A stretch of 64,000 bases of DNA from an uncultured Spirochaetia bacterium (GTDB taxonomy: Bacteria > Desulfobacterota_D > UBA1144 > Nemesobacterales > JADFKM01): positions 60,237 through 124,236 of the forward strand of contig CAZXEJ010000001.1 in assembly GCA_964639895.1 (NCBI GenBank), written 5' to 3'. A program made the position numbers and the translations under genes. Under the pieces are notes generated by a model. That model did not search any database. It saw only the letters and a list, made by a program, of their open reading frames with translations, and was not told the origin of the DNA. Numbering within the stretch: the stretch's first letter is position 1; every line of letters starts with the position of its first letter. Shown here piece after piece: positions 30,674 through 61,765 of the stretch.

Positions 30674-31391
30674 AACCTCGGAGACCGGATCCGGCCGGGC
30701 CTACACGCCACCGACGGAGGCGAACCACTTCTTTCTAGGAAGGAATAGTAAAAGGCAATTATATGCACGAACTTCCTAGAAAAATTCAGCCTATGAGTTT
30801 AATCCATTTAAAAAGGCTGTCAAGACGCATTTTGACGCCTACCACGGGAGCCGCCGTGGGTCTACCGCCGCCGTAGATACGACGTGGCCGGAGCCGATTG
30901 GGGAGGATGTGGTTACAAGCGTGCGTACGCAGCCTTTCAGCACTCCGCTGGCGGCACCCGCCTGCACCGAGCCATGCCGCCTGGGTTGCAGCCACCCACC
31001 TCCTCCGGCAGACGCTCCTACCACCCCGACCGGAAGGAGCAACCGTGCAACGGCGCTCCCTCGGGCGGAGGGCAAGCCACCCGTATCGGGAACAACCCCG
31101 CGCCCGGGGACGTCCTCGACCCAGAGCGGCAAACCCTCAAAGTGGAACCATATGTCCCCGCGCCTGCGTACCGTCCCCTGTCGGGAGATCCATCACCGAG
31201 TATTTTCCTTATATTTCTTGTGCGACGGGCCAGTACGTCACCCACCGCACCCGGGGGGCGCTCCACTCAACCCATCCCGCCCCCTCCAGGCACAGTCGCG
31301 GCGGAAGCCGGGGGATTTGACAATGGCGGGGGTTCGTTTTAAAATATCGAGTTCAGGGGATAGGGGATGGAGGCGGACAACCACATGTCGC

Positions 31392-31466
31392 GGGCCCATA
31401 GCTCAGCCTGGTTAGAGCTCCCGGCTCATAACCGGATGGTCCCAGGTTCGAATCCTGGTGGGCCCA
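31392..31466 (+). tRNA. tRNA-Met (anticodon CAT), elongator-type; tRNA-Ile2 (lysidine) cannot be excluded
   Basis: Cloverleaf read by eye: acceptor GGGCCCA/TGGGCCC (7 bp), D-stem GCTC/GAGC, anticodon loop CTCATAA, T-arm CCAGG-TTCGAAT-CCTGG, discriminator A, CCA not encoded. G1:C72 is paired, so it is not an initiator. Coordinates may be off by 1-2 nt. Confidence 0.85.
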
Positions 31467-32375: not shown

Positions 32376-32811
32376 CCCCCCCGGCGGCGACTCCCCTCCC
32401 GTGACGCTCATCTATACCGACGGTGCATCACGAGGCAACCCGGGCAGGGCCGGCATAGGGGTCGTACTCCGGAGCGACGGCGCACTGCTGGGGACGATAA
32501 AGGCCTACATCGGCATACGCACCAATAACCAAGCCGAGTACGAAGCCCTGATAGCGGCCCTCAAGAAGGCGCGTGAGCTGGGCAGCAGGCGCCTGCAGAT
32601 ATTTACCGACTCACAGCTGCTTGCCAACCAGGTAAACGGCCTCTGGAAGATCAAGGACCCCACGCTGAGGGGCCTCTACGAGAAGGTGCGCTCGCTAATG
32701 CGCGGCTTCGATTCCGTAACGGTCACCCACGTGCGGCGCGAGCTCAACAAAGAGGCCGACCGCCTTGCAAACGAGGCGATAGATGATTATATAGATAAGG
32801 TGGGCGAGTGA
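32362..32811 (+). CDS. rnhA: ribonuclease HI family protein
   Basis: 149 aa. TDGASRGNPGRAGIGVVL (catalytic Asp), EYEALIAAL, and a C-terminal ADRLAN Asp. 14-nt overlap with the upstream zinc-ribbon gene. Confidence 0.85.
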   Translation: MRRPDPPGGDSPPVTLIYTDGASRGNPGRAGIGVVLRSDGALLGTIKAYIGIRTNNQAEYEALIAALKKARELGSRRLQIFTDSQLLANQVNGLWKIKDPTLRGLYEKVRSLMRGFDSVTVTHVRRELNKEADRLANEAIDDYIDKVGE

Positions 32812-33189
32812 GTCGGATGGTCGCTCGTCCCTCGCTCCTTCAGGGAGCGAGCGGGCGGGAGGAAAGTCCGAACTCGGCAGGGCAGAGCGCTGGGTAACAC
32901 CCAGGTGCCGTGAGGCAACGGAAAGTGCAACAGAGAGCAGACCGCCTAAGTCCACCTCCCCCGCCGAGGGGGGCGTGGACCGGCAAGGGTGAAAGGGTAG
33001 TGTAAGAGACTACCGCACGGCGTGGCGACACGCCGTGGCTAGGCAAACCCCGCTCCGAGCAAGACCAAATAGGGGGACGCTTGAGGGTGGCCCGCCCGAT
33101 GTCCCCGGGTAGGTCGCACGAAGCGCCCAGCAATGGGCGCTCCAGATGGATGACCATCCTCGACAGAATTCGGCTTACAGACTCACTCG
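32805..33189 (+). ncRNA. rnpB: RNase P RNA, bacterial type A
   Basis: P1 helix CGAGTGAGTC...GACTCACTCG. GGAGGAAAGTCCGAAC (P4 5' strand). ...GTGCAACAGAGAGCAGACCGCC..GGCAAGGGTGAAAGGGTAGTGTAAGAGACTACC..GAGCAAGACCAAATAGGGG...ACAGAATTCGGCTTACAG all align with E. coli M1 RNA conserved regions. Followed by a T-run. The 5' end overlaps the rnhA stop codon. Confidence 0.9.
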
Positions 33190-33611
33190 TCCGTTTTTTC
33201 TATACCAGCGCACGTAAAAACCCGCCCGAAACACCTCGAAAGACACCGCCGACGTACTCTTCTATGCCGCATACGCAAGCGCACCGCACGTTGTGACCCA
33301 GCCGCCGTCGGCACTCCGGGCCGATCGTCTCCACGTAACCTCCCCACATAGCACAACCCTACTGTAGTACACCGGCGCCGGGGCATAACTTTAACGCTCG
33401 TGGAACGGACACGGCGGGACGCCGACGGTAGGAAAACGCATCCTAGGCGGGGGCGGTGATCACCTGTGGGGAACCATATCACCGAGCCCGCCCACGGCGA
33501 GACGCAGAACCGCTCCCGCGCGAACGCCGCGGCGACGCTCCCCGCGGTGGGACCATTCCAACCGCCGACCTCCGACGACCCTCGAGCGGCTCCTGCAACC
33601 GGGGCTCGGCC

Positions 33612-34817
33612 TCAGGTGAACCGTACGCGCACGAACTCTCTCTTTCCGATCTTTACGCGCAGCTCTTCACCCTCGGGCACGGAGGCCGTGGGGTCCGTGT
33701 AGCGGGTGCCGTCGATAGTAAGGCCCCCTTGGCGGATGAGACGCTTGGCCTCGCTCCGGTTCCGTATCCGTGACGAGACGGCCGTGACGAGATCGAGCAC
33801 GCTCATCCCCTCGGTCCGCTCAAGTTCGGCCACGGGGGCGTCCTCGGGGAAGGCGCGGCGGGAGAACTTGGTCTCGAAATCCCGTTGCGCACGCTCGGCG
33901 CTCTCGGCATCCAGGAGCCACGCTACTATCTCGCGGGCAAGCGCCTTCTTGGCCTCCATGGGGTGGCAGCTGCGGCGCAGCCGCTCGATCTCCTCTGCCG
34001 TGCGGGAGCTCAAGAGTTCATAGTAGTGCCACATCGTCTCGTCCGGCACGGACATTAACTTGCCGAACATCTCCTCGGGCGGCTCGTCCAACCCCACGTA
34101 GTTGCCGTAGGACTTCGACATCTTGCGCTTGCCGTCCAGCCCCTCAAGCAGGGGCAGCAGCACGACCACCTGGGGCGTTAGGCCGAAGTGGCGCTGCAGG
34201 TGGCGGCCGAGGAGGATGTTGAATTTCTGATCCGACCCCCCCACCTCGACGTCGGCCTTCACCTGGACGGAGTCGTAGGCCTGAATGAGCGGATAGAAGA
34301 ATTCGCGCAGCGTGATGGGTCTGCCCTCACGGTAGCGCTTCTCGAAGTCGTCGCGCTCGAGCAGGCGTGCCACGTTCTCGAGCTCGGCCAGCTCGAGCAG
34401 ATCCAGCGCACTCATGGGCTCGAGCCAGCGCGAGTTGAACACCAGCTCCGTCCGGTCCGGTCGGAGCACGCGGTATACCTGGCGCTCGTAGGTGGCGGCG
34501 TTCTCGGCCACCTGCTCGCGACTCAACCGCGGGCGCGCCTCGCTCCTGCCGGTGGGATCGCCTATGAGGGCGGTGAAGTCACCCACGATGAAGACCACCG
34601 TGTGACCCAGGTCCTGGAACTGGCGCAGCTTGCGCAACAGCACGCAGTGGCCCAGGTGGAGGTCGGGCGCCGTGGGATCGAACCCGGCCTTTATGCGCAG
34701 GGGGCGGCGCTCGCGGTAGGAAAGGCGCAGCCGCTCGAGCAGCTCCTCTTCGGATATTATCTCCACCGTGCCGCGGCGCAGTAGTTCGAGCTGCCGCTCG
34801 GGCTCCATGATCTCCAT
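33612..34817 (-). CDS. tyrS: tyrosine--tRNA ligase
   Basis: 401 aa. HIGH-type motif [14 protein letters not shown] motif KMSKSYGN, and a C-terminal S4 domain. Confidence 0.95.
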
Positions 34818-35042
34818 CTGCTACACCTCTCGTCGGGGGCGCCGTCCCAGCCCGCCGCAGGCGGGGGCTCTAGGTGCGACCGATGGGGGGGCAGGGCAAC
34901 CGACCCCCCCTCCCGCCGCACCACGGCCCGAGTGCGGGGGCGCCGTAACGGCTAATCAATATAACACATTATGGGTGACGGCGCCCCCGGCGGGACAGAC
35001 TTGAAAAAAAATCGGCCAACCACTACACTTATGTGAAGCGGG

Positions 35043-36173
35043 GTGCATCTAGCCATGAAAAGAGGCGACAAGGTCTATTACGTCAAGGACTTCGTCCAGT
35101 CCATACCTCTGCCCACCCCGAAGCAGATCTCACAGGAGCTCGAGAACCTGGGTTACCGTGGACAGGAGTCCTCCCGCAGGGCCGCCTGCTTGGCCGCCTA
35201 CAGGCACGTCAAACGCCTCAAGCTCCTCCATCTCAAGAAGATGCCCCGCTCCGAGTTGCCGGCGCGTCCCAACACCGTGCTCATCGGGCCCACAGGCTGC
35301 GGCAAGACCTTCCTCATCGAGCTCCTTTTCGGCGAGATCTTCAAGCTCCCATACGTTATCGTCGACATGACGAAATTCACCGAGTCGGGCTACGTGGGCG
35401 ATGACGTCGTAAACATCCTCGTACAACTTGTGTTCGCCGCCAACGAGAGCATCGACATCGCCGAGTGCGGCGTCGTGGTGCTGGACGAGTTCGACAAGAT
35501 AGCAGGTGCGCTGAGCAGCGCCCGGTTCGCCGGCCAGGGAACGACGAAGGACGTCTCGGGCTACGGTGTCCAGCGCGAGCTGCTCAAGATACTCGAGGGC
35601 ACCGACGTTCAGATCCCGCTCGACTTCGGCTTCTCCAACCGCGGCCCGCGCGCCTTCATATCGACGCGCGACATCACTTTCTTCTCGGTAGGCGCATTCT
35701 CGGGCATAAGGACCCTCATGGAGCGGCCCTCGATGGGGTTCCTGAGCGACGTCGACCGCGACGGCGGCGACCCGGAGGCCATCGCCTACAAGATCACCGA
35801 GGAGGAGCTCAACGACATATCCCGCTTCCACCTGTTCGGCTTCCTCCCCGAGCTGATCGCACGCTTCAACCGGATCGTGCCGTTCGCACCGCTCGACCGC
35901 GAGACGCTCAAGGAGATACTGCTGCTCAAGATACAGAAGTACAAGAAGGAGTTCCTCGAAGAGGGATTCCAGCTAACCATAGACGATGCGGCCATAAATC
36001 TCATCATCAACGAGGCGCTCCAGCGCCAGACCGGGGCGCGCGGCCTCGACGTCATAGTGACCAAGCACATAGAAGACGTGGCGTTCGAGGTGTTCGGTAC
36101 GGGAGCCGAGGGGGAGGTGCTGCTCACCGCAAGCGGAGGCGAGATGTCCCACTTCGTAAAGAGGCGCGCATGA
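35043..36173 (+). CDS. ClpX-like AAA+ ATPase lacking the N-terminal zinc-binding domain
   Basis: 376 aa. Walker A IGPTGCGKT, pore-1 loop GYVGDDV (ClpX GYVGEDV), Walker B VVLDEFDKI, and VSGYGVQRELLKILEGT (ClpX VSGEGVQQALLKIIEGT). No C4 zinc finger. MGF tripeptide where ClpX has the IGF loop. Confidence 0.85.
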   Translation: MHLAMKRGDKVYYVKDFVQSIPLPTPKQISQELENLGYRGQESSRRAACLAAYRHVKRLKLLHLKKMPRSELPARPNTVLIGPTGCGKTFLIELLFGEIFKLPYVIVDMTKFTESGYVGDDVVNILVQLVFAANESIDIAECGVVVLDEFDKIAGALSSARFAGQGTTKDVSGYGVQRELLKILEGTDVQIPLDFGFSNRGPRAFISTRDITFFSVGAFSGIRTLMERPSMGFLSDVDRDGGDPEAIAYKITEEELNDISRFHLFGFLPELIARFNRIVPFAPLDRETLKEILLLKIQKYKKEFLEEGFQLTIDDAAINLIINEALQRQTGARGLDVIVTKHIEDVAFEVFGTGAEGEVLLTASGGEMSHFVKRRA

Positions 36174-37507
36174 AGGTAGGTATCGTAAGCCTCGGCTGCG
36201 CGAAGAACCTGGTCGACAGCGAGCGCATGTGGGGGGTGCTGCAGCGGGAAGGCCACGAGCTCGTCCATCCGGAAGAGGCCGAGGTGGTGGTGGTCAATAC
36301 GTGCGGCTTCCTGGGTGACGCCGTCAGAGAATCGGTCGAGGCCATAGTGGAGGCCGCAGGGCTCAAGGAGAGCGGCCGCTGCCGCAGGCTCGTCGTGACG
36401 GGCTGTCTCGTGGAGCGCTACGGCGACGAGCTACGTAGGGAGCTGCCCGAGGTCGACGTCTTCTGCGGCACCGGCCCCACTCCCCCGCTCGAGGTTCTGC
36501 TCGGTGGGCCTGCCGCCGCGACGGCCCGCCACCCCTACGACCCCGACGCCCCGCGGGCGCTGCTCACGCCGCCGTGGACGGCCTACCTCAAGGTATCGGA
36601 GGGCTGCTCGCGCAGTTGCTCGTTCTGTGTAATCCCGTCGCTGAGGGGCCCGATGCGGAGCCGCACGCCGGACGACCTTGCGGCCGAGGCCGAGCGGCTC
36701 GCCGGAGGCGGGGTGAAGGAGCTAAACCTCGTGGCTCAGGACCTGACCAGCTACGGCCGCGACATAGGAAGCTCGCTCGAAGAGTTGCTCGGGCGGCTGT
36801 GCCGCATCGAGGGCGTGCGGTGGATAAGGCTCCTCTACTGCTACCCTTGGGGCTTTACGCCCGCACTGCTCGACACGATAGCCTCCGAAGAGAAGATCGT
36901 AAACTACGTAGACGTCCCGTTGCAACACATAAACGACCGCATCCTCGGCCTCATGAACCGCAAGACCACCTCGACTGGGCTCAGACAACTGGTTTCCACG
37001 CTGCGCGAACGCATACCCCGCCTTACGCTCAGGACGACCTTCATCGTGGGCTTTCCCACCGAGACGGAACGGGAGTTCCGCGAGCTGCTGGACTTCGTCG
37101 AGGAAGCCCACTTCGAGCGCGTGGGCGTTTTCACCTATTCACACGAAGAGGGCACGGCCGCAGCCGCATTGGAAGACAACGTCCCCCCGGAGGAGAAGGA
37201 AGAGAGGCGTGAGAGGCTCATGGAGCTTCAGGCCTCGATATCGCAGCGCCACAACGCCGCCCTCGTCGGGGAGGAGCTGGAAGCCCTGATAGAGCGGCGC
37301 GACGGTGCACGCTGGGAGGCACGCTTGGCGTCGCAGGCCCCAGAAGTGGACGGCGTCACGTACGTAGAATCGACGGCCCCCCTGAGACCGGGCGACATCG
37401 TGCCCGTCACCGTGACAGCGGCCGACACGTACGACCTCCACGCCGTGGCGGCCCCCCGTCGAGGCCGCACGCCGTCCCCGCGCCCGCAGGCGGCACAGCG
37501 CACCTGA
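36170..37507 (+). CDS. rimO: ribosomal protein S12 methylthiotransferase RimO (radical SAM, MTTase family)
   Basis: 445 aa. N-terminal MTTase domain (MKVGIVSLGCAKN), radical SAM CSRSCSFC, and a C-terminal TRAM domain. The ATG overlaps the upstream TGA (ATGA). The tracked 680-aa ORF from 35465 is a spurious 5' extension. Confidence 0.9.
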   Translation: MKVGIVSLGCAKNLVDSERMWGVLQREGHELVHPEEAEVVVVNTCGFLGDAVRESVEAIVEAAGLKESGRCRRLVVTGCLVERYGDELRRELPEVDVFCGTGPTPPLEVLLGGPAAATARHPYDPDAPRALLTPPWTAYLKVSEGCSRSCSFCVIPSLRGPMRSRTPDDLAAEAERLAGGGVKELNLVAQDLTSYGRDIGSSLEELLGRLCRIEGVRWIRLLYCYPWGFTPALLDTIASEEKIVNYVDVPLQHINDRILGLMNRKTTSTGLRQLVSTLRERIPRLTLRTTFIVGFPTETEREFRELLDFVEEAHFERVGVFTYSHEEGTAAAALEDNVPPEEKEERRERLMELQASISQRHNAALVGEELEALIERRDGARWEARLASQAPEVDGVTYVESTAPLRPGDIVPVTVTAADTYDLHAVAAPRRGRTPSPRPQAAQRT

Positions 37508-37761
37508 CTCCCCCCAGCACCCGCCACCCAGGAGGCACCTCGACCCCTGCCGGCGGCCCCGACCCATTCTCGAAAGACACGTAACGCAACTTCACCAGAC
37601 TCCTCCCAGAGCGCCGCCTTCCCCTTCCCACACGGCCGCGTACCCCGACGCCCCCCGGGGCGCACCACCCCGGCACCCCTTCCCCTCGCGTCCCCTCCCC
37701 CCGACACCGGGCCCCGACCACCACTTGAACACGGCACCCTTTCCCCCTATACTCCAACGGG

Positions 37762-38706
37762 ATGAGAATCGTCTTCATGGGTACGCCCCGCTTCGCCGTC
37801 CCGTCGCTCCGGGCGCTGGTGAGCGCGGGCCACGACGTGGTGGCCGTGGTCACCCAGCCCGACAAACCCAAGGGCAGGGGCCGTCGTACAGCGCCGCCGC
37901 CCGTCAAGTGCGAGGCCGTATCGCACGGCATCCAGGTGCTCCAGCCCGCCAAGATACGGACCGACGAGTTCGCCCTATGCCTCGAGGGGCTCGAGCCCGA
38001 GGTGGTGTGCGTCGTGGCCTACGGCAAGATACTCCCCAAGCGTGTGCTCGACATCCCGCCGAGGGGATGCATCAACGTCCACGCATCCCTCCTCCCCAAG
38101 TACCGCGGGGCCGCCCCCGTCAACTGGGCCATCATCCGCGGCGAGCGGACGACGGGGGTGACGACGATGCTCATGGACGAGGGCATGGACACGGGCGACA
38201 TACTGCTGCAGCGGCAGGTCGCGATCGAAGACGACGATGCCGAGACGCTGGCCGAGAGGCTCTCGCACGTGGGGGCCGAGCTGCTGGTGGAGACGCTCGA
38301 GGCCTTGGAGAGGGGAGCGCTCACGCCACGGCCCCAGGACGACTCGGCGGCCACCTATGCTCCGATGCTCAAGAAGGAGATGGGGCTCATCGATTGGAGC
38401 CGCGACGCCGAGGAGATAAGGAACCTCGTCCGAGGGCTGAGACCGTGGCCGGGCGCCTATACCCAGTGGGGGGAGAAGACGCTCAAGGTGATACGCGCCG
38501 TAGTAGCCCAGGGAGAGGGCAGGCCCGGCGAGGTGATAGAGGCCTCTACATCGCTCGTCGTGGCCGCGGGCCGCGGTGCGCTGCGGATAGAGGAGCTCCA
38601 GCTCGAGGGGAGCAAGCGCATGGGCGCGGCCGATTTCCTGCGCGGACACCGTATCGAGACGGGCACGGTGCTCGGCTCCGGGGGAGAGGGGAGCCGGAAG
38701 GGCTAG
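37762..38706 (+). CDS. fmt: methionyl-tRNA formyltransferase
   Basis: 314 aa. MRIVFMGTP.FAVPSL N-terminus, HASLLPKYRGAAP catalytic region, and a C-terminal Fmt domain. Confidence 0.95.
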   Translation: MRIVFMGTPRFAVPSLRALVSAGHDVVAVVTQPDKPKGRGRRTAPPPVKCEAVSHGIQVLQPAKIRTDEFALCLEGLEPEVVCVVAYGKILPKRVLDIPPRGCINVHASLLPKYRGAAPVNWAIIRGERTTGVTTMLMDEGMDTGDILLQRQVAIEDDDAETLAERLSHVGAELLVETLEALERGALTPRPQDDSAATYAPMLKKEMGLIDWSRDAEEIRNLVRGLRPWPGAYTQWGEKTLKVIRAVVAQGEGRPGEVIEASTSLVVAAGRGALRIEELQLEGSKRMGAADFLRGHRIETGTVLGSGGEGSRKG

Positions 38707-39080
38707 AGCGCGAACTCGACCGAGTAGCTGCCAACCTTCACCTTGGCCGCAAGGCCGTGGTTCCAGCACAGCTCACGCGCCCTGGCTTGGAGTTCCTTGG
38801 GCACCGCCACCACCAGCCTCGCCCCCAGGTCGGAGAGGCTCTTCCACTCCTCCACCTCGGTTTCGCTCACCGTCGAGGGGGTCTCCACCTCGACCACCAT
38901 CACCACCTGGCCGTAGTTCACGAACACCACGTCCGGGTATAGGCCCGCCACGGCATAGTTCCGCTCGTCGCCCGGGTTTATGTGGACCTCCTTGTACTCG
39001 CGGGCCCAGCGCTCCTTGATCTTCCTTATCACCCAGTCGTGGAGGAACTGCTCGTCCTTAGTCCGCGACATAACCCTCAC
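38703..39080 (-). CDS. hypothetical protein, possible PD-(D/E)xK nuclease fold
   Basis: 125 aa. YPDVVFV...VVMVVEVETP..K resembles a PD-(D/E)xK core. Overlaps the nadK 5' end by 23 nt and the fmt stop by 4 nt. Confidence 0.45.
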   Translation of the reverse strand: MRVMSRTKDEQFLHDWVIRKIKERWAREYKEVHINPGDERNYAVAGLYPDVVFVNYGQVVMVVEVETPSTVSETEVEEWKSLSDLGARLVVAVPKELQARARELCWNHGLAAKVKVGSYSVEFAL

Positions 39081-39966
39081 CCCATCTCAGTTTGGCCTTG
39101 AGCGTGCGGAAGAAATCGCTGAAGGGGGACTTTATTATGCGCACCTTGTGCTGTGCCCTTACGACCTCCACCACGTCCCCCCGCCTCAAGGGGATGCCCC
39201 CCCTGCCGTCCAGGGTGAGGAAGATGTCGGTCGAGTCGGCGGCCGTAATCTCGAGCTTTATGTTGGCCTCGCTAGAGACGACGAGCGGGCGGTTGGTGAG
39301 GATATGGGGACAGATGGGGGTGATTATGGTGACGGGCAGCGTGGGATAGACGATGGGGCCTCCGGCCGACAGGGAATAGGCCGTCGAGCCCGTCGGTGTG
39401 GCGACGATGATGCCGTCGGCCTTGAAGGTGGTTATGTACTTGCCGTCTATCAGCAGCTGGAGATCGATTATACGGGCCACGGCGCCCTTGTTGACTACGG
39501 CGTCGTTTAGCACGACGAACCCGCCCAACGTATCGCCCGTACGGTGTATGTTGACCGAGAGCATGTTCCGCTCCTCGGTCGTATAGTCTCCTCTGAGGAC
39601 GTGCTCCATCATCGGGTAGAGCTCGTGGCGGTCGATCTCGGTAAGGAACCCCAAACGGCCGAGCTTGACGCCGAGCAGAGGGATGTCGGCCTCGCTCACC
39701 AGGCGGGCCGCGGCCAGGAAGGTACCGTCGCCGCCCAGGACTACGACGACGTCGGCCACCTGGGACATCATGTTGCGCTGGACGTAGTGGCCGTGTCCGA
39801 TCTTCTCGTCCAACTCTTCGTCGATGAACACCTCGACGCCGCGCTCTTGGAGCCACGCCGTAAGCTCGGTGGCGATGTCGTGCGCCTCCTTAGAGTGGCT
39901 CTTGCCGATGATGCCTATCCTCAACTGCGGACGCACCCCCTGGCGGGTGGATTGGCTCCGGCGCAA
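39058..39966 (-). CDS. nadK: NAD+ kinase
   Basis: 302 aa. GGDGTFL motif (VVVLGGDGTFLAAARL) and NE/DD catalytic motifs. Confidence 0.9.
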   Translation of the reverse strand: MRRSQSTRQGVRPQLRIGIIGKSHSKEAHDIATELTAWLQERGVEVFIDEELDEKIGHGHYVQRNMMSQVADVVVVLGGDGTFLAAARLVSEADIPLLGVKLGRLGFLTEIDRHELYPMMEHVLRGDYTTEERNMLSVNIHRTGDTLGGFVVLNDAVVNKGAVARIIDLQLLIDGKYITTFKADGIIVATPTGSTAYSLSAGGPIVYPTLPVTIITPICPHILTNRPLVVSSEANIKLEITAADSTDIFLTLDGRGGIPLRRGDVVEVVRAQHKVRIIKSPFSDFFRTLKAKLRWGEGYVAD

Positions 39967-40038
39967 CGGGCGACGGGACGGTGACGAAGCTATATAATAA
40001 ACGCCCCCGCCGGGGGCGTCAAAACGCCCTCCTCCACC

Positions 40039-41163
40039 CTAGGACGTATCGGCGGCCGAATGCTCGCGGGCGGGTGCCTGGAGCAGGTAGCTCTTTATGA
40101 ACCCCTCAAGCTCGCCGTCCAAGACGCCTTCGACGTCGGCCGTCTCGTGGCCCGTACGGTGGTCCTTGACCATCTTGTAGGGGTGGAGCACGTAGGAACG
40201 TATCTGGCTGCCCCAGCCTATCTCCTTCTTTCCAGCGCTAAGCTCGTCCAGCCTGCGGCGCCTCTTCTCCTTCTCCAGCTCGTAGAGGCGCGCTCTCAAG
40301 ATCTTCATCGCCGTGTGCCGGTTCTGATGCTGGCTGCGCTCGTTCTGGCAGCTTACCACGATGCCAGTCGGGATGTGGGTTATGCGGACGGCCGAATCGG
40401 TCTTGTTGACGTGCTGGCCGCCCGCGCCGCTTGCGCGGAACGTGTCTATGCGCAGGTCCTTCTCGTCTATCTCGACCTCGACGTCCTCCTCGATCTCTGG
40501 GGCCACGAACACAGAACAGAACGACGTGTGGCGGCGGCGGCTGGCGTCGAAGGGGGAGATGCGCACCAACCGATGAACGCCGCTCTCGCCGCGCAGGTAG
40601 CCGAACGCGTAGGGGCCCTTGACGAGGAAGGTGGCGCTCTTTATGCCGGCCTCTTCGCCGGGCTGCAGATCGAGCATCTCGGTCTCATAGCCCTGGCGCT
40701 CGGCATAGCGCAGGTACATGCGGAGCACCATCTCGGCCCAGTCCTGGGCCTCCGTCCCTCCGGCGCCGGCGTTGATGGAGACTATGGCGTTGCGCTGGTC
40801 GTCCTCGCCGCCCAACATGCGCTTGAGCTCGAGCGACTCGACCTCCCTCTCCAGGCGCTCGAGCTTGCCGGACGCCTCCTGCACGGTGGCTTCGTCCTGG
40901 GCCTCCTCACCCAGCTCGGCCAGCACCTCGACCTCCTCGAGCTCCTCCTCCACCCCCTCGATGGCGTCGACGATCCCCCTGAGCGCGGCCCTTTCGCGGA
41001 GCATGCGCTGTGCCCGCTCGGCCTCGTCCCAGAACCCCTCCTCGCCGGTGGCGGCGTCCAGCTCCTCGATGCGGCGCAACTTGGCCGGAATGTTGTAGAA
41101 CTCCTTGAGTTCGGCGAACCTCCTGCGGAGGTCCTCAATCTTGTCTCGTATCTCTGCGTACAT
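40039..41163 (-). CDS. prfB: peptide chain release factor 2
   Basis: GGQ motif (RASGAGGQHVNKT) and SPF tripeptide (RISPFDASRRRHTSF) specific for RF2. Start taken at MYAEIRDKIEDLRRRF. The reading frame is continuous, so there is no programmed +1 frameshift. Confidence 0.92.
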   Translation of the reverse strand: MYAEIRDKIEDLRRRFAELKEFYNIPAKLRRIEELDAATGEEGFWDEAERAQRMLRERAALRGIVDAIEGVEEELEEVEVLAELGEEAQDEATVQEASGKLERLEREVESLELKRMLGGEDDQRNAIVSINAGAGGTEAQDWAEMVLRMYLRYAERQGYETEMLDLQPGEEAGIKSATFLVKGPYAFGYLRGESGVHRLVRISPFDASRRRHTSFCSVFVAPEIEEDVEVEIDEKDLRIDTFRASGAGGQHVNKTDSAVRITHIPTGIVVSCQNERSQHQNRHTAMKILRARLYELEKEKRRRRLDELSAGKKEIGWGSQIRSYVLHPYKMVKDHRTGHETADVEGVLDGELEGFIKSYLLQAPAREHSAADTS

Positions 41164-41350
41164 AGGACACCGGCGACGGCCGCACTGGAAACCGGAGCCG
41201 TCGCAACACAACGAATAATATTATGTGAGCGCCCCGCGAATTCAAGGCGCGGCGCAGCCGGCCGCCCACCCTTGCGGCGGTTGATTAATTCCCCCGATCG
41301 GGTAGATTCATTGCGTTCACACCATCCCCCCCACGACGGAGAAGGCGAGG

Positions 41351-42490
41351 ATGAAGACATACCTTTTCACTCCCGGCCCCGTGCCGGTCGCCGAGGACAT
41401 ACTGCTCGAGATGGCTCGGCCCATCATACACCACAGGACCGAGGAGTTCGAAAACCTGTTCGGCCAGGTCCGACGAGGGTTGCGCACAGTGTTCCAGACC
41501 CAGCAGGAGGTGTTCGTGCTCGCCGCTTCGGGCACGGGCGCCATGGAGGGGGCCGTGGCCAACACCCTGTCGACCTCGGCCAAGGCTCTGGTCGTAAACG
41601 GCGGTAAGTTCGGCGAGAGGTGGGCCAAGATATGCAGGGCCTACGGGGTCGAGGTGCACGAGGTGATGGTCGAATGGGGGGAGGCCGTCGAACCCCAGCT
41701 GATAAAGAACATCCTTGAGAACGACCCGTCGATCAAGGCCGTGCTCGTACAGGCCAGCGAGACCTCGACGGGGGTGATGCATCCCGTGCGGGAGATCGCC
41801 GAGATAACCCGCCAGAGGGACGACGTCATCCTAATCGTGGACGGCATCTCGGCCGTGGGCGTGATCCCGCTGCCGTTCGACGAGTGGGGCATCGACGTGC
41901 TGGTCGGAGGGTCGCAGAAGGCGTTCATGCTGCCGCCGGGCCTGAGCTTCGTGGCCATGAGCGAGAAGGCGTGGCGGTTCAACGAGAGCTCCGACCTGCC
42001 GAAGTTCTACCTGGACTTCAAGGCGTACCGCAAGAGTGCAGAGAAGAACTCCACCCCCTACACGCCGGCCGTAACGCTGGTGATCGGGCTGGCGGCCGTG
42101 TTGCGACGCTTCATGTCCGAGGGGATGGACGCCGTCTACGCCCGCGCCGAGAAGCTGGCCCGCGCCACCCGCGAAGGGCTTAAGGCCATGGGTCTCGAGC
42201 TCTACGCCAAGACGTCGCCCTCACCCTCGGTGACGGCCGTCTATTCGCCTCCGGGCATCGACGCCAAGCTGATCATAGGCGGGCTGCGCGAGAAGTACGG
42301 CATGACGGTGGCCGGCGGACAGGACCAGGCCAAGGGCAAGATATTCCGCATCTCCCACATGGGCTACATCGACAAGGCCGACATACTGGCCGTCATCTCC
42401 GCCGTCGAATCGGTGCTGCGCGACATAGGGTACGAGTTCGAGTTCGGAGCCGGCACGAAGAGGGCCGCTGAGGTGCTCTCGGAGGGCTGA
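41351..42490 (+). CDS. class V pyridoxal-phosphate aminotransferase (serine-pyruvate / alanine-glyoxylate type)
   Basis: 379 aa. MKTYLFTPGPVPVAEDIL N-terminus, the SQKAFMLPPGLSF PLP-lysine region, and overall AGXT-like length. Confidence 0.85.
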   Translation: MKTYLFTPGPVPVAEDILLEMARPIIHHRTEEFENLFGQVRRGLRTVFQTQQEVFVLAASGTGAMEGAVANTLSTSAKALVVNGGKFGERWAKICRAYGVEVHEVMVEWGEAVEPQLIKNILENDPSIKAVLVQASETSTGVMHPVREIAEITRQRDDVILIVDGISAVGVIPLPFDEWGIDVLVGGSQKAFMLPPGLSFVAMSEKAWRFNESSDLPKFYLDFKAYRKSAEKNSTPYTPAVTLVIGLAAVLRRFMSEGMDAVYARAEKLARATREGLKAMGLELYAKTSPSPSVTAVYSPPGIDAKLIIGGLREKYGMTVAGGQDQAKGKIFRISHMGYIDKADILAVISAVESVLRDIGYEFEFGAGTKRAAEVLSEG

Positions 42491-60076: not shown

Positions 60077-61765
60077 ATGATAAACCCACGCGTTGTACCC
60101 CCACTACGGGTGGGCTGCCTGTTGTTGGCCGCCCTATCCTTCGTGGCACTCGCACCGACGGAATCCTCGCCGCGTGACCCTACAGGACGCCTTACCACCG
60201 GCTGGGGGCTGCATCGGGTGGTATTCTCCGTCCCCGAGGGCGACGTAGTCGTCATGCTGCCGGACGACCTTGCGGCGGGCGACACCATATCGGGCGCCGT
60301 CGTAGCCGCGCCGGCCGGCAAGGGGCGCAAGCGCCGCAAGATGGCCGACCGCCTGGAAGGCTACGTCGTGGCGGCCGAGGAGATGAAGGCGCCGGTGGGA
60401 AAGGGCGCGCTCAAGTGGACGGTGCCCGCGGCGCTGGCAGGAGGTACGGCTACGCTCATACTGCTGGATGAGAAGGGCAACGCGGCAGCCCGCACGGAGG
60501 TGCCCGTCGCGGCAGCACCGCCGCCCGCCGCGGTTGCGGAACCCCTGCCCGAGGACTTCGCGCTGCCCGAGATAGGGCAAGCGGGAAGACCCATCTCGAT
60601 CGGCGGTCCCTTCGACGGCGAGTTCGGGACCACAGCGGTCAAGATGGGCGGCGAGACGATCCCCCTTCTGGCCGAATCTCCCCGCAAGGTGGTGGTCCGC
60701 ACACCTCGTGACGTCGTGGGCGGGACGGAGCTCGAGGTGCGGGAGGGCGACGTCGTCGCCAAGGGCACTATCTACAACGTCGGTGTCTCGCTCTCGGCTC
60801 CCCGCACCAAGCTGCACCAAGGCGAGGAGACGACGCTCCAGCTGACGGTCGAGGGGCTCGCGGGCTACGGCAGGCCGCTTGACGTCTACGTGCGGAACGA
60901 GACGCCCGAAGTGGTATCGATGGAGGGCGGCAACCTGATCACCGTACGTATCAACCCCGACGACCTGGACGAAGAAGGCCTGTTCACAGCCACCATACCC
61001 GTGAGAGCGGTCAGGATGGGATCGTTCTCCATCTCGGCCGTCGTAGCCGCGGCGAGTGACCGGCACGACTACTCCACCACCCGCAGGTGGAAGAGCGTCA
61101 ACCACGACCTGGCCGCGTCCTCCAGATGGAAGAAGCGGCACAACGAGTCGGTGAGCGTGGCCGAGAAGCTGCCCGAGAGACACGCGGAAGAGTTGTCGGA
61201 GAAGTGGGTCGGGCGCAAGCACAGCTTGAGCACGAGCAGGAAGTGGCGTGCCGAGGGCCATGCGCTGGCGTTGACCGAGCGCTGGGGGAAGCACGCCTAC
61301 GCCCGCTCCCGGCAGTGGTCACACTCGAACCATGCGGTCGAAGCCTCGCGGCGGTGGAAGGACGACGGCCACGCCCACGGCACATCGCGGCTGTGGAGGG
61401 GCGAAGGACATGCATACGAACAAAGCACCGCATGGGCACGCCTGAAGCCCAAACACTCCTATGTGACGTCGAAGCACTGGAAGGGCTACGGCCACAAGGA
61501 GGCCGATTCGTGGAAGTGGAGGGCCGAGAAACACCAGCCGGGTATAAGCATAAAACGGGTCGGCAAACACGAGGCCGACACAACCAAGATGTGGAAAGGC
61601 GACCTCCACCGCGAAAAGCTCTCGCGCCGCTGGCGTGGTGAGGAACACCGCTACACGACGTCCATGAAATGGAAGGACGAGAGGCACAACCACCGCTTCT
61701 CGCGCAGGTGGAAGGGCGAGGGCCACAACTACGGCGAGAGCCGCAAGTGGCAGGGGAAGCGTTGA
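60077..61765 (+). CDS. secreted protein with C-terminal Trp/His/Lys/Arg-rich 13-residue tandem repeats
   Basis: 562 aa. Signal peptide (MINPRVVPPLRVGCLLLAALSFVALA). Residues 30-350 are likely beta-rich. Residues ~350-562 consist of about 16 copies of S-[RK]-[RK]-W-[KR]-x-[ED]-G-H-x-[YH]-x-x (e.g. SRRWKDDGHAHGT, SRLWRGEGHAYEQ, SRRWKGEGHNYGE). GAGGCGGAGG Shine-Dalgarno upstream. Confidence 0.7.
   Translation: MINPRVVPPLRVGCLLLAALSFVALAPTESSPRDPTGRLTTGWGLHRVVFSVPEGDVVVMLPDDLAAGDTISGAVVAAPAGKGRKRRKMADRLEGYVVAAEEMKAPVGKGALKWTVPAALAGGTATLILLDEKGNAAARTEVPVAAAPPPAAVAEPLPEDFALPEIGQAGRPISIGGPFDGEFGTTAVKMGGETIPLLAESPRKVVVRTPRDVVGGTELEVREGDVVAKGTIYNVGVSLSAPRTKLHQGEETTLQLTVEGLAGYGRPLDVYVRNETPEVVSMEGGNLITVRINPDDLDEEGLFTATIPVRAVRMGSFSISAVVAAASDRHDYSTTRRWKSVNHDLAASSRWKKRHNESVSVAEKLPERHAEELSEKWVGRKHSLSTSRKWRAEGHALALTERWGKHAYARSRQWSHSNHAVEASRRWKDDGHAHGTSRLWRGEGHAYEQSTAWARLKPKHSYVTSKHWKGYGHKEADSWKWRAEKHQPGISIKRVGKHEADTTKMWKGDLHREKLSRRWRGEEHRYTTSMKWKDERHNHRFSRRWKGEGHNYGESRKWQGKR

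Follow-up and report, generated by a model that had tools for sequence, protein, structure and literature searches.

A ClpX-like gene coupled to rimO belongs to a widespread clade of ClpX-type proteins without the zinc-binding domain

The window analysed here, a stretch of 64,000 nucleotides (nt) from an uncultured Spirochaetia bacterium (positions 60,237 to 124,236 of contig CAZXEJ010000001.1, assembly GCA_964639895.1), includes a gene for a ClpX-like AAA+ unfoldase located directly upstream of rimO. Sequence comparisons confirmed that the product of this gene is a ClpX-type AAA+ protein that is separate from canonical ClpX. It falls in a clade, referred to below as the family, that is very large, widespread and unnamed, so the gene is not a one-off oddity. 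Family members lack the N-terminal zinc-binding domain (ZBD) and the RKH loops of ClpX, yet strongly conserve a tripeptide of the type that docks ClpX onto ClpP. The protein is therefore proposed, with moderate confidence, to be an alternative ClpP-docking unfoldase, hexameric and ATP-driven, that would select its substrates differently from ClpX. An earlier reading of the DNA letters without database searches (the sequence-only reading) had described the gene as a ClpX paralog that might be a dedicated unfoldase or chaperone, possibly ribosome-related.

The clpX-like gene and its product

The open reading frame (ORF) runs from a GTG codon at 35043 to position 36173 on the forward strand and would encode 376 amino acids (aa), the length given in the sequence-only reading. 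The ORF itself was recovered, but the true start is probably ATG 35055, four codons after GTG 35043. This is where every close relative begins, as does P0001, a database entry with 100% identity, and the resulting N-termini have the form MKRGD... or MRRGE.... The gene is thus placed at 35055..36173 (+), encodes 372 aa and ends with a TGA stop codon at 36171-36173. Residue numbers used here are counted from GTG 35043.

The protein includes the Pfam domains AAA_2, AAA and ClpB_D2-small (lid). Its top NCBIfam models are the ClpX equivalogs NF003745 (229.9 bits, cut-off 359) and TIGR00382 (202.6 bits, cut-off 370.75), and both cut-offs were missed. The ClpX models align to the protein only from model position ~57-62, i.e. 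after the ZBD. The nearest solved structures are all ClpX, the best being 8yd0 (E 2.7e-48, ~33-37% identity). Assignment as HslU was rejected, as the match to TIGR00390 covered the N-terminal part only and, with 85.6 bits, stayed below the cut-off (362.45), and the I-domain insertion is missing.

The clpX-like frame opens only at 35037, six bases 5' of GTG 35043, and the 5' side is bounded by the divergent upstream gene tyrS (33612..34817, minus strand; read from its translation). Hence no ZBD is possible upstream. A CxxC..CxxC motif was not found in any frame within the 400 nt upstream of the gene, and a hidden upstream zinc finger was thereby ruled out. The absence of an N-terminal C4 zinc-binding domain, as claimed in the sequence-only reading, therefore stands. 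Applied to 78 canonical clpX loci, this test detected an in-frame ZBD in 77, and hence it works. A ZBD-like motif was absent from 324 of 325 family proteins. The single exception (P0079 from Eremiobacterota) has an N-terminal CxxC-x14-CxxC mini zinc-ribbon (CDQC...CEQC), which could be a remnant of the ZBD or an independent gain; its relative P0067 retains a single CxxC.

Motifs were read from an alignment with E. coli ClpX, the reference sequence of which is supported by its tblastn match. All of the following are on the forward strand. The Walker A motif GPTGCGKT (residues 82-89; 35286..35309) is identical in 304 of 320 family members. The pore-1 loop (residues 116-119; 35388..35399) is GYVG, as in 280 of the 320 members, the other 40 having GYIG. 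Walker B is LDEFDK (residues 147-152; 35481..35498), and the sensor-2 motif TGARGL (residues 330-335; 36030..36047) is identical in 308/320 members. The arginine finger R274 (35862..35864), which corresponds to R307 of E. coli ClpX, is invariant in alignments A1 and A2. The ClpX ATPase module recognised in the sequence-only reading, with its Walker A/B, GYVG and sensor motifs, is thus intact in this alignment and by NCBIfam and Pfam, and R274 can be added to it.

Three segments may bear on substrate selection and docking. Before the pore-2 loop, the protein carries a family-specific insertion, ARFAGQGTTKDVSG (residues 157-171; 35511..35555), which makes this region 5 residues longer than in E. 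coli ClpX. The RKH loop of E. coli ClpX is not present in the alignment, and PLDFGFSNRGPRA is found in its place. The tripeptide MGF (residues 231-233; 35733..35741) aligns to the IGF of the E. coli protein, in agreement with the sequence-only reading, and G232 is invariant in alignment A2.

An AlphaFold2 model built with 20 family sequences has the ClpX fold (predicted local distance difference test score, pLDDT, 78; predicted template modelling score, pTM, 0.76), and a search of the PDB with the model returned only ClpX and ClpXP chains as top matches. Together with the alignment, the model places the MGF tripeptide between the same secondary-structure elements as the IGF of ClpX. Two loops are of low confidence in the model, namely the insertion before pore-2 (157-171) and the loop that contains MGF (221-251, pLDDT <50); presumably these segments are flexible, as expected for pore and docking loops.

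Extent of the family and its relation to known unfoldases

A first search recovered at least 120 relatives of 372-383 aa with 49-82% identity, which are currently labelled "AAA family ATPase" or "ClpX" in databases. They come from Candidatus Dadabacteria, Thermodesulfobacteriota, Acidobacteriota/Blastocatellia, Stahlbacteria and Eremiobacterota, and further searches added Planctomycetota, many Polyangia and the cultured Haliangium ochraceum (Myxococcota). When 1.84 billion cluster representatives were searched with a family profile, 3273 clusters matched at E<1e-30; among these, family-like proteins scored from 486 down to ~250 bits and canonical ClpX ~230-240 bits. In a scan of contigs with the family alignment, 2 of the 80 loci listed belong to the family, and the other 78 served as the canonical control and outgroup.

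A neighbour-joining tree (Kimura-corrected distances over 373 columns, 200 bootstraps, HslU as outgroup; distance-based, not maximum likelihood) recovered the family as monophyletic in 200/200 bootstraps and canonical ClpX in 168/200. The window protein falls inside the family clade and outside canonical ClpX. Score, ZBD, RKH, clade and operon position all set the protein apart from canonical ClpX, and it is not an HslU either; the claim that it is not a standard ClpX is borne out by both the sub-cut-off equivalog scores and the separate clade. The family is probably a sister clade of canonical ClpX that either never had the ZBD and RKH loops or lost them long ago.

Family members share 30-41% identity (median 33%) with E. 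coli ClpX. The window protein displays all of the family signatures, which are LGYRGQ, GPTGCGKT, an RFAGxGTTKDVSG[YF]GVQ insertion, absence of the ZBD and of RKH, and a length of ~370-395 aa. The GPTGCGK pattern is also common to many canonical ClpX proteins, from Actinomycetota, Alphaproteobacteria, Cyanobacteria and Clostridia.

Many relatives of 530-600 aa (such as P0153, P0158, P0163, P0170 and P0147) also outscore canonical ClpX on the family profile. They have an apparently helical N-terminal extension of ~200 aa, with no Pfam match, instead of the ZBD, and some of them have an altered Walker A motif (GQTGCGKT, GNTGCGKT).

Canonical ClpX, as seen in ClpXP structures from E. coli, M. tuberculosis and N. 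meningitidis, has the same fold of AAA+ large and small domains, and shares with the family the Walker A/B, GYVG, arginine finger and TGARGL motifs, a flexible loop that bears an IGF-type tripeptide, and LPxP before the AAA module. The family differs in the signatures LGYRGQ and GPTGCGKT, in the sequence features given above (PLDFGFSNRGPRA replacing RKH, 5 additional residues before pore-2, no C4 domain), and in the lack of a clpP-clpX operon. HslU (ClpY) belongs to the same broad group of single-ring AAA+ unfoldases and matches the clpX-like protein weakly at the N-terminus. However, the clpX-like protein lacks the I-domain insertion and its gene lacks an adjacent hslV, and hslVU coexists with the clpX-like gene in several relatives.

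Mitochondrial CLPX, which has chaperone activity as well, has no RKH loops and no adaptation to ssrA tags. Its structure matches the clpX-like protein, but it keeps its zinc-binding domain and is more distant in sequence (130 bits versus 168 for bacterial ClpX). Engineered E. coli ClpX-deltaN (~62-424) has the same architecture, consisting of the AAA+ module only; it hexamerises, binds ClpP and degrades ssrA-tagged but not ZBD-dependent substrates. ClpX-deltaN retains the RKH loops and a normal pore-2 loop, whereas the natural family has neither.

Among published proteins, the one nearest to the ZBD-less clade is ClpX3 of M. xanthus (MXAN_2743, WP_026113955.1), a natural protein of 356 aa that lacks the N-domain and RKH and is encoded away from clpP (PMC11423568). 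Deletion of clpX3 is viable, growth at 36 C needs ClpX3, and N-truncated ClpX2 partly substitutes for it (PMC11423568). ClpX3 is likened to the family by its published description, and its reported identity with E. coli ClpX is 43.5% (PMC11423568), above the 30-41% of the family. It was not among the top matches of the Myxococcota-centred searches or of a search from a 356-aa relative, and its primer-derived termini (MESSAR... and ...TQLDV) had no match among the collected proteins. Literature searches found no description of a ZBD-less ClpX-like clade beyond the ClpX3 paper.

The putative docking tripeptide and the proposed function

Among the 320 full-length members, the tripeptide at the IGF position is IGF in 235, VGF in 33, MGF in 25, LGF in 18, AGF in 4 and others in 5. 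The pattern [IVML]GF is thus found in 311/320 members, and with AGF, TGF and two other variants a hydrophobic-Gly-Phe tripeptide is present in ~99%. By this count, MGF, the variant of the window protein, is one of the rarer forms of a strongly selected tripeptide. The 530-600-aa relatives, with their other N-domains, also keep IGF, which counts for ClpP docking.

Engineered E. coli ClpX without the N-domain is still functional with ClpP. Docking onto ClpP is proposed for the family because of the near-invariant hydrophobic-Gly-Phe tripeptide, the activity of the engineered N-domain-less ClpX, and the precedent of ClpX3. In this proposal, the clpX-like protein would form a hexamer that threads substrates through its pore, and the IGF-like loops would dock onto the housekeeping ClpP encoded elsewhere, giving a second ClpXP-type protease. 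Substrates would be chosen without ZBD-dependent adaptors or ssrA-type RKH recognition; recognition would more likely involve the enlarged pore-2 region, the segment replacing the RKH loop and a conserved short N-terminal segment.

Several observations weigh against this proposal. Compared with E. coli ClpX, the protein has 5 residues fewer in the stretch leading to the tripeptide. As noted in the sequence-only reading, clpP is not adjacent to the clpX-like gene, and none was found in the 64-kb window by tblastn with E. coli ClpP as query. Approximately 90 family loci were compared, collected by look-ups of exact proteins and by scanning metagenomes for a DNA pattern specific to the family (counts are of samples), and clpP was found in none of them. 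In addition, the conserved 4-nt coupling to rimO described below could mean that the two genes are functionally tied in this lineage.

The lack of clpP at the ~90 loci also suits a ClpP-independent unfoldase or remodelling chaperone, in which the ClpX motor would unfold or disassemble specific proteins without degradation, as mitochondrial CLPX does for ALAS and ClpX for MuA. The lack of ZBD and RKH, elements of the classical degradation pathways, fits such a role, as do neighbouring genes that belong to biosynthesis and translation and not to proteostasis. We consider this unlikely, however, since conservation of hydrophobic-Gly-Phe in ~99% of members, within a loop that is otherwise variable and disordered, is hard to explain without a partner of the ClpP type, and ClpX proteins that moonlight as chaperones still bind ClpP.

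The same neighbourhoods raise the question of whether the protein is a paralog at all, or is instead the organism's only ClpX, a ZBD-less form that has replaced the canonical one. A second clpX was not found in the 64-kb window by tblastn with E. coli ClpX as query, and neither canonical clpX nor clpP occurs in the flank of any relative. Replacement is nevertheless improbable. While clpP lies immediately upstream in 66 of 78 canonical clpX loci, family genes never take this operon position, and the phyla that contain the family have cultured members with canonical ClpXP. A diverged extra copy is also suggested by the long branch and by the loss of RKH. M. xanthus, moreover, has two canonical ClpX proteins beside the N-domain-less ClpX3 (PMC11423568). 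A putative paralog, proposed to dock onto the housekeeping ClpP, is the preferred assignment.

Coupling to rimO, gene neighbourhoods and significance

The clpX-like gene is followed by rimO (36170..37507, +), which encodes the ribosomal protein S12 methylthiotransferase. RimO is an ordinary, full-scoring member of its family (TIGR01125, 474.5 bits, cut-off 356.95), with UPF0004, radical SAM and TRAM domains (PF00919, PF04055, PF18693) and the CxxxCxxC motif CSRSCSFC. The stop/start overlap reported in the sequence-only reading was verified. The letters at the junction are AAG AGG CGC GCA TGA AGG, in which the rimO start ATG 36170 overlaps the clpX-like stop TGA 36171-36173 as ATGA (36170..36173, +), and a Shine-Dalgarno-like AAGAGG for rimO (36159..36164, +) lies in the last clpX-like codons (K-R-R-A), 5 nt before the ATG. 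The junction pattern AAGAG[GA]CG[CT]GCATGA recurs in relatives, and 18 related loci of 69-79% identity keep an ATGA junction.

A sigma-70-like promoter site, TTGAAA-17-TACACT (35001..35029, +), lies upstream of the clpX-like gene as a consensus match only. A consensus scan of 34600-38000 gave 3 promoter-like sites against 0.3 expected, the next one after this site being at 37725-37753, before fmt. As the scan found no promoter-like or terminator-like site on the forward strand between the clpX-like gene and rimO, a bicistronic transcript is likely. In this lineage, the two genes are translationally coupled and would be co-transcribed from the promoter-like site at ~35001.

Of the 127 closest family members, 88 end in [KR]-R-A (RRA in 47, KRA in 41). 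This C-terminus is shared by the rimO-linked clade and an Acidobacteria-like clade without rimO, and is not found in a Myxococcota-like set. The tail of the rimO-linked clade is doubly constrained, because AAG AGG CGC GCA TGA also provides the Shine-Dalgarno sequence and start of rimO.

Of the 19 loci that have room downstream and encode a protein with 63% or more identity to that of the window, 18 have rimO as the next gene on this strand. ATGA is the most frequent junction in the rimO-followed loci, the others having gaps of 27, 42 or 487 nt, and the ATGA coupling is kept across relatives of 69-100% identity. However, rimO was found in 0 of 39 informative loci of 60% identity or less. Synteny with rimO is therefore retained within one clade and absent outside it, and since the link is confined to that clade it is not definitive of family function. 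The only member of the rimO-linked clade that has room downstream but no rimO is L103 (75% identical), in which the clpX-like gene ends with TAA and is directly followed by fmt; this suggests that rimO was lost or relocated there.

The coupling could also be taken to indicate a dedicated RimO partner in this lineage, which would unfold or present S12 for methylthiolation, or mature or quality-control iron-sulfur/radical-SAM enzymes. Its conservation, in both junction and gene order, speaks for such a role. A loose metal-cluster theme can also be seen in the Acidobacteria-like clade, where genes for Fer4, multihaem-like and Pyr_redox proteins flank the clpX-like gene in ~13 loci. In the extended form of this idea, the protein would be a RimO helper in this Dadabacteria-like lineage (acting on S12, or maturing or recycling RimO), and the wider family would consist of client-specific unfoldases for metal-cluster proteins. 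We regard the RimO partnership as very doubtful, and give equally little credence to its extension. In all 39 loci of the other clades rimO is out of reach, L103 has an intact clpX-like gene without rimO beside it, and RimO in the window is of the ordinary type. Literature searches gave no link between rimO and ClpX, and surroundings with tyrS, fmt and the RNase P RNA resemble generic housekeeping clustering. Of the ribosome-related role raised in the sequence-only reading, the coupling to rimO is real, but the role is at best a lineage-specific possibility. A ribosome-dedicated role for the whole family is not supported by these comparisons, and ClpP docking remains the function proposed here.

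Further housekeeping genes surround the pair. Upstream of tyrS and the clpX-like gene are an RNase P RNA of class A (32805-33193, +; 299.5 bits) and a tRNA gene (31392-31466, +), and the many long ORFs in the list at 30800-31400 and 32800-33500 are probably for the most part spurious. Downstream, the window has the order rimO, fmt, a conserved, uncharacterised minus-strand ORF of 122-125 aa, NAD kinase, RF2-like prfB and a class-V aminotransferase (37762-42490), and the same order from rimO to the aminotransferase was found in a relative of 63% identity, GCA_012974745.1 (L087 8922-13122). This shared order suggests that the window derives from a Dadabacteria-like organism.

Unbiased clustering of neighbouring ORFs across the ~90 loci found no partner gene conserved family-wide. 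The Acidobacteria-like clade (48-60% identity) has a tight conserved cluster around the clpX-like gene in ~13 loci, for example L083 3964-11838, and also L084, L003, L129, L149 and L165. In this cluster, genes for a cNMP-binding/Fer4 protein (~817 aa) and an FHA protein with multihaem-like CXXCH motifs (~500 aa) precede the clpX-like gene, and genes for a Fer4/Pyr_redox_2 protein (~555 aa) and a cytochrome C7-like protein follow it. In other family loci, the clpX-like gene lies beside unrelated genes. One sub-clade has hslV-hslU ~5 kb upstream (L082 1099-2992, L086 1-1409, L118, L130, L159 and L169), with argB-argD-argF and an opposite-strand ORF of ~90 aa in between. As these close relatives possess a separate hslV-hslU pair, the clpX-like protein is not their HslU.

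Two other distant contexts occur in L085 and L089/L090 (49-52% identity). One includes UvrD/PIF1-type helicases, a GIY-YIG nuclease, a CHAT protease and RmuC, and the other seven consecutive unannotated genes and a PDDEXK_3 nuclease. These contexts look like mobile or defence-type ones, unlike the housekeeping context of the window. The occurrence of two distant members among helicases, nucleases and a CHAT protease, or among unknown genes, could suggest a component of anti-phage defence or of a mobile element. That reading is extremely improbable for the window gene, as its context is core housekeeping, the best PADLOC match was 26.7 bits with weak partial AAA matches, and a scan of viral contigs gave only ClpX-like matches of 37% identity or less.

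With a family this common and a ribosome link limited to one lineage, the finding is less surprising than the sequence-only reading supposed. The coupling to rimO provides an experimental handle in this lineage, not a family function. For annotation, the label "ClpX" is misleading for family genes, "AAA family ATPase" being the other label in current use.

ClpX ranks among the best-understood protein unfoldases, and the usual explanation of its substrate choice invokes the zinc-binding domain, adaptors and RKH loops. In this family, which extends over several phyla and thousands of database proteins, the ZBD, the ZBD-dependent adaptors and RKH are all missing, yet a tripeptide of the ClpP-docking type is strongly conserved. 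If docking onto ClpP is true, a second ClpXP protease, with its own substrates and recognition rules, would exist in many bacteria, and the family would represent a natural experiment on substrate selection by the pore region of the ClpX motor alone.

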